A DNA stretch of 64,000 nt from Escherichia coli. GTDB lineage: Bacteria; Pseudomonadota; Gammaproteobacteria; Enterobacterales; Enterobacteriaceae. The notes beneath the pieces are model-generated. The model saw only the letters and a list, made by a program, of their open reading frames with translations, was not told the origin of the DNA and ran no database searches. A program made the position numbers and the translations under genes. Every line of letters starts with the position of its first letter. The first letter of the stretch is position 1. Where the stretch lies: the NCBI RefSeq assembly GCF_030013205.1, contig NZ_CP122648.1; one strand, 5' to 3'. Below, one piece after another: positions 50,628 to 53,681 of this stretch.

Positions 50628-50733
50628 GATACGGCATGAACGCCTTATCCGCCCTACGCGGTTCTGGCACATTTTGTAGGCCTGATAAAACGCGGCAAGC
50701 GTCGCATCAGGCATGATGCGCCAATTGCCTACG
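50628..50733. repeat. REP (BIME-type) palindromic cluster between araJ and mak
   Basis: Units acGGCATGAACGCCTTATCCGCCCTACg and tTGTAGGCCTGATAAaacGCGgcAAGCGTCGCATCAGGCATgatGCGCC... match the REP consensus family. Confidence 0.55.
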
Positions 50734-51770: not shown

Positions 51771-52682
51771 ATGCTGTGGTTCAAAAATTTAATGGTTTAC
51801 CGTCTTAGCCGCGAGATTTCGTTGCGTGCAGAAGAGATGGAAAAACAGCTAGCCTCGATGGCATTTACCCCATGCGGCAGCCAGGACATGGCGAAGATGG
51901 GCTGGGTTCCTCCGATGGGATCGCACAGCGATGCGTTAACGCACGTTGCCAATGGTCAAATTGTTATCTGCGCGCGCAAAGAAGAAAAAATCCTCCCGTC
52001 TCCGGTGATTAAACAGGCGCTGGAAGCGAAAATCGCCAAACTGGAAGCGGAACAGGCGCGTAAGCTGAAGAAAACCGAAAAAGATTCGCTGAAAGACGAA
52101 GTGCTGCACTCTCTGCTGCCACGTGCTTTCAGCCGTTTTAGCCAGACAATGATGTGGATCGACACGGTTAATGGTTTGATTATGGTGGACTGCGCCAGTG
52201 CCAAAAAAGCGGAAGATACGCTGGCATTACTGCGTAAAAGCCTGGGGTCGTTACCGGTTGTACCATTGAGCATGGAAAACCCGATTGAACTGACGCTGAC
52301 CGAATGGGTACGCTCCGGCAGCACAGCACAGGGCTTCCAGCTGCTTGATGAAGCCGAGCTGAAATCACTGCTGGAAGATGGCGGCGTGATCCGCGCGAAG
52401 AAACAAGATCTGACCAGCGAAGAGATCACCAACCACATTGAAGCCGGAAAAGTGGTGACTAAACTGGCGCTCGACTGGCAGCAGCGCATTCAGTTTGTGA
52501 TGTGCGACGATGGTTCGCTCAAGCGTCTGAAGTTCTGCGACGAGCTGCGCGATCAAAACGAAGATATCGACCGTGAAGATTTCGCCCAGCGTTTTGATGC
52601 CGATTTCATCCTGATGACTGGTGAACTGGCAGCGTTAATTCAAAACCTGATTGAAGGATTAGGTGGCGAAGCACAACGTTAA
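51771..52682 (+). CDS. rdgC: Recombination-associated protein RdgC
   Basis: Trimmed to [40 protein letters not shown]... (303 aa). Confidence 0.9.
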
Positions 52683-52701
52683 TTGCTGATTTACCTTTAA
52701 T

Positions 52702-52739
52702 GCCGGATGCGACGCCTGCCGCGTCTTATCCGGCGTACG
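52702..52739. repeat. REP element downstream of rdgC
   Basis: GCCGGATGCGACGCctgccGCGTCTTATCCGGCgtacg, a canonical REP-type palindrome. Confidence 0.55.
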
Positions 52740-52839
52740 AAGCTACACCAGGCATATAATTATTCGCTACGGCGGGCAATAATTTTTAGCGCAGCAATAT
52801 TATGCGTTTTACGCTGTAACTTGATCCAGGGGCGTTGTG

Positions 52840-53118
52840 TCATTGTTTTTCCTCAAGCCGGTGACGCGCTTCACTGCGAATTTTCCGCGTTGCCCCGGTT
52901 TTCACTAAATCCCGTAACTGCGAAAGAGCGGGTTGATCGACAAATAAAAGTAATGATGGCTCCTCTTTTAGCCACACCGTTTTCACATCGGCAGCCAGCT
53001 GTGGATTATTAATAGCCAGCGACCGATCCTGAGACTCCGTCAATGTCGTTAACAACATCGGGGTATGTGCGTTGCGCAATGCCGTTTGGCGCAAATGATC
53101 ATTGCGACTTTGCAGCAA
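52840..53118 (-). CDS. Small hypothetical ORF in the rdgC-ppnP gap (position corresponds to K-12 ykiA); coding status uncertain
   Basis: 92-aa ORF MLQSRNDHLRQTALRNAHTPMLLTTLTESQDRSL...; no recognisable domain; may be a gene remnant. Confidence 0.3.
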   Translation of the reverse strand: MLQSRNDHLRQTALRNAHTPMLLTTLTESQDRSLAINNPQLAADVKTVWLKEEPSLLLFVDQPALSQLRDLVKTGATRKIRSEARHRLEEKQ

Positions 53119-53325
53119 TGCACGCCACCATTCATCATCTGATTTATCTTTTATCGTCGCCAGTTCCGCAACAATATCTGGAGATCTTCACTGATATTTA
53201 TATCAACCTTGATGAATTATGAATATATCGGAAATCGAAAAAATCGCAGCAAAGGAAATATTATTATGGGTTTATGAGAGGACATTTCAGAAAAATGCCC
53301 TCCCGTTCATGGGGAAGGCGAGGAA

Positions 53326-53610
53326 TTACAGATAGCGGCACAGATAAGAGGTGGGTTCGGCAACTTGCAGATGAAACTCGCTGTGACCGGGAACATTAAA
53401 CACCGAACCGGCTTCATACACTTGCCAGTCGGTCGCGTCAGGCAGTAACACATTCAGCGCACCACTGATTACCGTCATCTCTTCAGGCTCAGCGGTGCTG
53501 AAGGTGTATTCACCTTCAACCATAACACCCACGCTGGCGCGACCAGTGCTGCTGCTGGAAAAGCCGATCGATTTCACTTTGCCGGAAAAGTACTCATTAC
53601 TTTGAAGCAT
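53326..53610 (-). CDS. ppnP: Pyrimidine/purine nucleoside phosphorylase (cupin, UPF0345)
   Basis: 94-aa [53 protein letters not shown]...; formerly yaiE. Confidence 0.85.
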
Positions 53611-53681
53611 AAACTGGCCCTGTCTGGTAGTTGAACATCTACTTCACTATAGGGGCCAGAGGCGCTGGCTGTCACGCAAAA

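Follow-up and report, generated by a model that had tools for sequence, protein, structure and literature searches.

The locus considered here raises a simple question: what occupies the unusually long interval between rdgC and ppnP in a 64,000-nucleotide stretch of Escherichia coli DNA (the window, to which all coordinates refer unless stated otherwise). The left flank is rdgC (51771..52682, plus strand; ORF translation MLWFKN...EAQR*), which is annotated under that name in the identical strain CFSAN018748, and the right flank is ppnP (53326..53610, minus strand), recognized by its ORF and by annotation. The end of rdgC at 52682 and the minus-strand end of ppnP at 53326 delimit a spacer of 643 bp (52683-53325), as stated in an initial annotation that was made from the sequence alone. 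That annotation described the spacer as gene-poor, with a 92-aa ORF lacking a recognizable domain and a REP palindrome, and suggested that it might be a decaying gene remnant at the position of K-12 ykiA, or might hide a small RNA or a regulatory region.

The spacer is 100% identical to that of E. coli CFSAN018748, and a match to it is present in 5424 of 5426 complete E. coli genomes. In the RefSeq/PGAP annotation of CFSAN018748 it includes, at window 52840-53178, a DUF2773 pseudogene flagged as “incomplete; missing N-terminus” and, at 52760-52843, a CDS of 27 aa; the term gene-poor is thus apt in part, given that PGAP already places these two features there. The layout is shared by a K-12-like strain, in which ‘protein YkiD’ occupies 408947-409030, the exact MG1655 coordinates of VanOrsdel et al. 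2018 (PMC6001520), and comparison with the annotated strains bears out the assignment of the locus to the position of K-12 ykiA. Two plus-strand ORFs in the spacer, of 101 and 38 aa, had no family match and were dropped as antisense or chance ORFs. The spacer is an ordinary, already annotated pseudogene locus and not a hidden new element. Our reading, to which we give a probability of roughly 0.9, is that it is what deletions have left of a minus-strand operon of two genes, which lay downstream of ppnP, on the same strand as ppnP and convergent with rdgC. What is new is the exact anatomy of the deletions and the recognition of YkiD as an in-frame deletion product of an SF0329-family gene.

The larger of the two relics is the ykiA pseudogene (52840..53178, minus strand), which preserves the 3′ end (the final ~112 codons) of a 759-aa DUF2773 gene and is identified by its Pfam match, the PGAP note and homology to the intact locus described below. 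The TTG-initiated 92-aa ORF at 52840-53118 (minus strand), which is present in the ORF list as first reported, is contained within it. Contrary to the initial view that it has no recognizable domain, this ORF matches the complete Pfam DUF2773 model (PF10971; profile positions 1-81/81) at E=2.7e-38 (130.4 bits; cut-off 25). The full-length DUF2773/YdbD-like architecture, which comprises ~750 aa with a beta domain, an alpha-solenoid and its own start, is absent from the remnant. A word-indexed search with the remnant returned E. coli fragments only (66-152 aa), whereas an exhaustive HMMER search recovered longer proteins (746-766 aa), similar to the remnant over their final ~110 residues with 35-42% identity, together with a 342-aa E. 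coli fragment that is 94% identical to it. Searches of PDB sequences with the remnant and with SF0329 gave nothing below E=0.1. A 152-aa database protein (P0054, from a 944-bp Logan contig) has the first ~44 residues of the 92-aa ORF fused to the C-terminal part of RdgC; the fused genes lie on opposite strands, and the protein represents an inversion/deletion variant or else a chimeric assembly.

Searching complete genomes with the 5′ part of the 342-aa fragment identified E. coli O145:H28 RM9872, in which the ppnP-rdgC interval contains an intact 759-aa DUF2773 gene and a 151-aa SF0329-family gene that overlaps the stop codon of the 759-aa gene by 4 nt. The same order (ppnP, 759-aa DUF2773, 150-151-aa SF0329, rdgC) is found in O157:H7 H6437. 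This operon (WP_120795310 / WP_122986368 and WP_000194201) is orthologous to the spacer locus and shares its flanks, promoter region and REP, and the blocks retained in the window are 97-98% identical to it. In the window the large gene is short of ~1.94 kb and the SF0329 gene of 372 bp, with the result that neither protein can be made. The suggestion of a decaying gene remnant is accordingly supported, the 92-aa ORF lying in the final ~112 codons of the gene that O145:H28 and O157:H7 still have in intact form. The ancestral operon would have encoded a 759-aa paralogue of YdbD followed by a translationally coupled 151-aa SF0329-family protein. The GC content of the operon is 42.5-45%, as against 50.6% for the window.

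Alignment of the window to the O145 locus (L009) by BLAST yields three collinear blocks of 97.3-97.9% identity that define both deletions. Block 1 (window 53184-53700, L009 3297-3813; 97.9%) covers part of ppnP and the upstream region of the operon, and ends 2 nt before the ATG of the 759-aa gene. Block 2 (window 52812-53178, L009 5753-6122; 97.3%) holds the large-gene remnant and the start of SF0329, and block 3 (window 52600-52826, L009 6481-6706; 97.8%) holds the end of SF0329, the REP and the end of rdgC. The loss of ~1.94 kb between blocks 1 and 2 deprived the large gene of its start codon and ~646 codons and left a two-part junction. An 18-nt segment at 53167..53184 (minus strand), TCTCCAGATATTGTTGCG, matches L009 4883-4900 at 100% and corresponds to codons 357-362 (SPDIVA) of the intact gene, the junction reading GAAGA|TCTCCAGATATTGTTGCG|GAACTGG; the presence of this internal segment indicates that the loss has two parts. 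The first part spans L009 3814-4882, that is, the start codon and 356 codons. The second is an in-frame 870-bp deletion between the near-identical 12-nt repeats GATATTGTTGCG and GATATTTTTGCG, which sit in two helical repeats of the 759-aa protein. The converse history, in which a short spacer came first and an insertion into it created the ‘intact’ O145/O157 form, is argued against by the shared flanks and by a composite junction that retains internal codons 357-362.

The second deletion produced the smaller relic. A 27-aa ORF at 52760..52843 (minus strand; MTQRPWIKLQRKTHNIAALKIIARRSE) is in the ORF list, is a CDS in CFSAN018748 and is ‘protein YkiD’ in the K-12-like strain. Alignment to the intact 151-aa gene shows that it consists of SF0329 residues 1-11 joined to residues 136-151. 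The junction is a 372-bp (124-codon) in-frame deletion inside SF0329 between AGTTACAGCG and AGTTACGGCG, the two copies of a 10-bp imperfect direct repeat, of which the surviving copy lies at 52812..52821 (minus strand) in alignments with the O145 locus and with the corresponding locus of strain PK12 (L003). The ORF still has the Shine-Dalgarno sequence (GAGGA), ATG and stop codon of SF0329, and its ATG is overlapped by the stop codon of the ykiA remnant (ATGA). Its product has no Pfam or NCBIfam match, falling outside the SF0329 models PF25753 and NF049912. The window peptide agrees with K-12 YkiD (MTQRPWSKLQRKTHNIAALKIIARRSE) at 26/27 residues, the exception being S7I, and occupies the same position between ykiA and rdgC. 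In K-12 the YkiD protein has been detected by chromosomal epitope tagging and immunoblot (VanOrsdel et al. 2018, PMC6001520); as the inherited initiation signals are intact, the relic ORF should still be translatable in the window strain. The initial annotation overlooked both this ORF, which is translated in K-12, and the DUF2773 domain.

The distribution of the two junctions among strains orders the events. Junction 1 is common to all remnant-bearing strains examined, from which it follows that the large deletion occurred once, and at least 4522 of the 5426 complete E. coli genomes match contiguously across it. In strain PK12 an intact SF0329 gene lies beside a remnant that contains an internal stop codon, and together with the shared junction 1 this places the large deletion before that in SF0329. 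The later 372-bp in-frame deletion would then have cut SF0329 down to the 27-aa ykiD; a contiguous match to junction 2 is present in at least 4100 of the 5426 genomes. The deletion alleles stand at 76-83% frequency, while the 5′ part of the large gene is kept in 447/5426 complete genomes and the SF0329 middle in 921/5426. Decay has taken other forms in single strains: in MS1665 the remnant is gone and SF0329 is frameshifted, and in STO_Bone1B an IS1 element replaces the entire ykiA/ykiD region (L012:3146-3843). In a metagenomic contig (L006:1-95) the large gene is cut by an IS1-like terminal repeat, read by eye. IS1 is active at the ykiA/ykiD locus, as seen in this contig and in STO_Bone1B.

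Constraint on the remnant was assessed across 12 loci, of which 11 have a remnant-homologous region (nine remnant alleles and the intact O145 and O157 genes). Pooled pN/pS is 0.55 for the remnant region, compared with 0.02 for rdgC, 0.00 for ppnP and 0.08 for aroM. Relative to the intact O145 gene, the nine remnant alleles contain 33 nonsynonymous and 17 synonymous distinct variants, including one nonsense variant, and these counts do not differ significantly from a neutral site fraction of 0.765 (binomial p=0.09). Some of the changes fall at family-invariant residues, and the window allele itself has a one-codon deletion. The intact gene, by comparison, has a dN/dS of 0.12 overall and 0.23 over the last 113 codons (O145 vs Escherichia sp. 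E4930). The remnant alleles evolve nearly neutrally, and the strong purifying selection that the initial annotation had named as the mark of a real small gene was not found. With nine alleles, a pN/pS below 1 and an N:S count slightly below the naive neutral value may possibly reflect weak residual constraint or polymorphism inherited through recombination.

These results weigh heavily on the proposal that the 92-aa ORF, or a version of 112-113 aa, is a functional small gene encoding a stand-alone DUF2773 protein, which we regard as very improbable. The ORF is open in most alleles and holds the whole Pfam domain, but in every full-length relative DUF2773 is merely the C-terminal tip of a ~750-aa solenoid protein, and the changes at family-invariant positions include P to S in the HTP motif. 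The sequence GGTGG lies 6 nt upstream of the TTG, yet the native start codon of the large gene has been deleted and an in-frame TGA directly precedes the fragment. Older K-12 annotation lists YkiA as a 113-aa protein (Table 1, PMC3950696), and according to the same paper the locus is transcribed in K-12 upon BglJ expression; against this stand the pseudogene call of PGAP, the pN/pS of 0.55, the nonsense allele, the complete loss of the remnant in some strains and the existence of database protein variants that include frameshifted fusions of the remnant to ykiD. The ykiA fragment is more probably a non-functional pseudogene under neutral drift.

A related proposal is that the YkiD peptide, or a BglJ-RcsB-dependent transcript, has been co-opted and that the deletion allele is kept by selection and not by drift. 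The deletion-allele frequency and the open ykiD reading frame are compatible with some retained use: at least 76% of complete genomes carry junction 2, the reading frame is uninterrupted in each of the nine remnant-plus-ykiD (372-bp deletion) alleles examined, the promoter and BglJ-RcsB site are retained, and YkiD is detectably made in K-12 (PMC6001520). The translation of YkiD is, however, explained by the inherited Shine-Dalgarno sequence and ATG, and its sequence is just the two ends of SF0329, with no family match. Among only nine strains the peptide shows several amino-acid changes (S7I, R11H, T13K, K20R and R25C), and one copy is shortened to 26 aa; some other strains are without ykiD, and the literature found reports no phenotype for it. 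Co-option consequently has a slim chance, and the products of the remnant locus are probably without function.

Upstream of the deletion scar, the native AT-rich upstream region of the lost operon is preserved for 141 bp (53185..53325, minus strand; GC 36.7%), up to 2 nt before the former ATG of the 759-aa gene, and is recognized by its homology to the O145 locus. Over 147 bp it is 94.6% identical to the K-12-like strain (8/147 positions differ). According to Salscheider et al. 2013 (PMC3950696), the K-12 ykiA promoter in the homologous interval is activated by BglJ-RcsB, on the evidence of lacZ fusions, 5′-RACE and site mutagenesis. The regulatory region envisaged in the initial annotation is thus present and represents the lost operon's own promoter region. 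The homologous promoter sequence is in the window, and by analogy with K-12 it would be expected to respond to BglJ-RcsB; a candidate match to the wwTTCykA core (ATTTCCGA) was read by eye at 53228-53235 (minus strand). The locus may be transcribable from the old promoter, which in K-12 is silent unless BglJ-RcsB is present. A pattern scan also found an intrinsic-terminator-like hairpin after the ppnP stop codon (53297..53319, minus strand), with an 8-bp stem of which 6 pairs are G-C, followed by ATTTTTCT; this is a consensus match only. The promoter region, the putative ppnP terminator and the REP have survived the decay.

The REP palindrome, reported in the initial annotation at 52702-52739, was recovered at 52702..52734 (plus strand) as a single element in the gap where the 3′ ends of rdgC and ykiD converge, 19 nt after the rdgC stop codon. 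It has 0 mismatches to the consensus GCCGGATGCGRCGY-N5-RCGYCTTATCCGGC, which had 0 matches in 100 shuffles of the window, and the 78-nt region folds with -29.8 kcal/mol (z = -4.0). It shares with E. coli REP elements the same exact consensus, a stable hairpin and a site between convergent genes, and differs in being a single copy and not a BIME cluster. A second REP-like palindrome, with 3 mismatches to the consensus, lies at 50680-50712 (minus strand) just downstream of the mak stop codon. The idea that the spacer hides a small regulatory RNA drew on its length, the structured REP and promoter-like hexamers on both strands, but these hexamers number 4 against 1.7 ± 1.3 expected, barely above chance, and the intact operon, its upstream region and the REP account by homology for every part of the 643 bp. 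An Rfam search of the spacer found no family at the gathering threshold, the sole match being a partial, REP-like tail of the REP-derived naRNA4 (27.8 vs 59.5 bits). A small RNA, which had been proposed at the outset and was not found, is extremely improbable.

With regard to the proteins that the operon once specified, the AF2 model of the 759-aa protein has a mean pLDDT of 84.5, with a beta-rich domain at ~25-180 and a confident alpha-solenoid at 240-759; residues 1-22 have a pLDDT below 50, and the N-terminus is hydrophobic and may be signal-peptide-like, judging from its sequence. Foldseek matched the model to generic HEAT/ARM solenoids only, with low TM-scores, and relatives of the protein have sub-threshold LRV/HEAT Pfam matches; DUF2773 is the last 81 residues of this HEAT/LRV-like solenoid. 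For the 759-aa protein, NCBIfam yielded no meaningful match. The orthologous intact protein of 151 aa reaches 80.7 bits with Pfam PF25753 and 93.7 bits with NCBIfam NF049912. PADLOC defence models matched neither intact protein (759-aa or SF0329), and no relevant literature was found under SF0329, DUF2773 or the Pfam accessions.

YdbD (b1407), which PGAP names ‘DUF2773 domain-containing bactofilin’, is a paralogue of the 759-aa protein, and both end in DUF2773. The two are 28% identical over 588 solenoid residues and 30% identical over the N-terminal beta domain, whereas the window keeps only the C-terminal tip. The bactofilin Pfam match is sub-threshold in YdbD (E=0.0036) and absent in the O145 protein. 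The YdbD locus is different (pdxI-ydbD-ynbA) and is without an SF0329 partner; ydbD is frameshifted in several strains. It lies directly upstream of ynbA, whose promoter is also a BglJ-RcsB target according to PMC3950696, and both E. coli DUF2773 loci therefore adjoin BglJ-RcsB-activated promoters.

The gene pair is also found in a more distant enterobacterium. A Logan contig (SRR31227373; L020:102-3377) retains the synteny of ppnP, DUF2773 (755 aa) and SF0329, with identities of 87% for PpnP, 77% for SF0329 and only 30% for the large protein; these unequal identities within a conserved arrangement indicate that the locus is old and that the large gene evolves fast. Such strikingly unequal rates within one operon suggest that the solenoid gene has diversified rapidly or been replaced as a cassette. 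In Escherichia sp. E4930, of a cryptic clade (L019:4001-7336), an intact 759-aa gene encodes a protein with 74% aa identity; the gap between this gene and rdgC is only 145 bp, which leaves no SF0329 gene, and the pairing is consequently not obligatory. In Leminorella grimontii (L004:2238-5471) SF0329 is not beside a DUF2773 gene and instead ends a same-strand run of small genes comprising HTH_35, two genes without family match, WGR+DUF4240 and a 109-aa gene without family match. This context may hint at the function of the SF0329 family. The 109-aa gene upstream of SF0329 was considered as a DUF2773 homologue and rejected (BLASTP E=2).

A close known counterpart of the window locus is the K-12 ykiA (b0392) pseudogene with ykiD, which has the same rdgC-ppnP position, the same two junctions and the same layout. 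The remnant DNA is 95.3% identical to that of K-12; the differences are the one-codon deletion in the remnant, S7I in YkiD and the 8 upstream positions noted above. Expression data for ykiA/ykiD come from K-12 only, and both the promoter activity and the translation of YkiD would be carried over to the window strain by analogy, given the 94.6% upstream identity and the 26/27 shared YkiD residues. Inheritance is the most economical account of such expression: the former promoter would respond to BglJ-RcsB as before, and ribosomes would load at the initiation signals left from SF0329 and make the 27-aa relic peptide.

The long spacer is fully explained, and the annotation is tidied with little consequence for wider biology. 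The DUF2773 domain defined by YkiA amounts to no more than the C-terminal tip of a YdbD-like solenoid protein of ~750 aa, and YkiD is an in-frame deletion relic and not a purpose-built microprotein, which counsels caution in small-protein catalogues. The mildly novel thread is the role of the intact DUF2773/SF0329 pair. For E. coli itself, the locus offers a clean, datable case of stepwise decay by short-repeat deletions, with intact, intermediate and lost states in one species.
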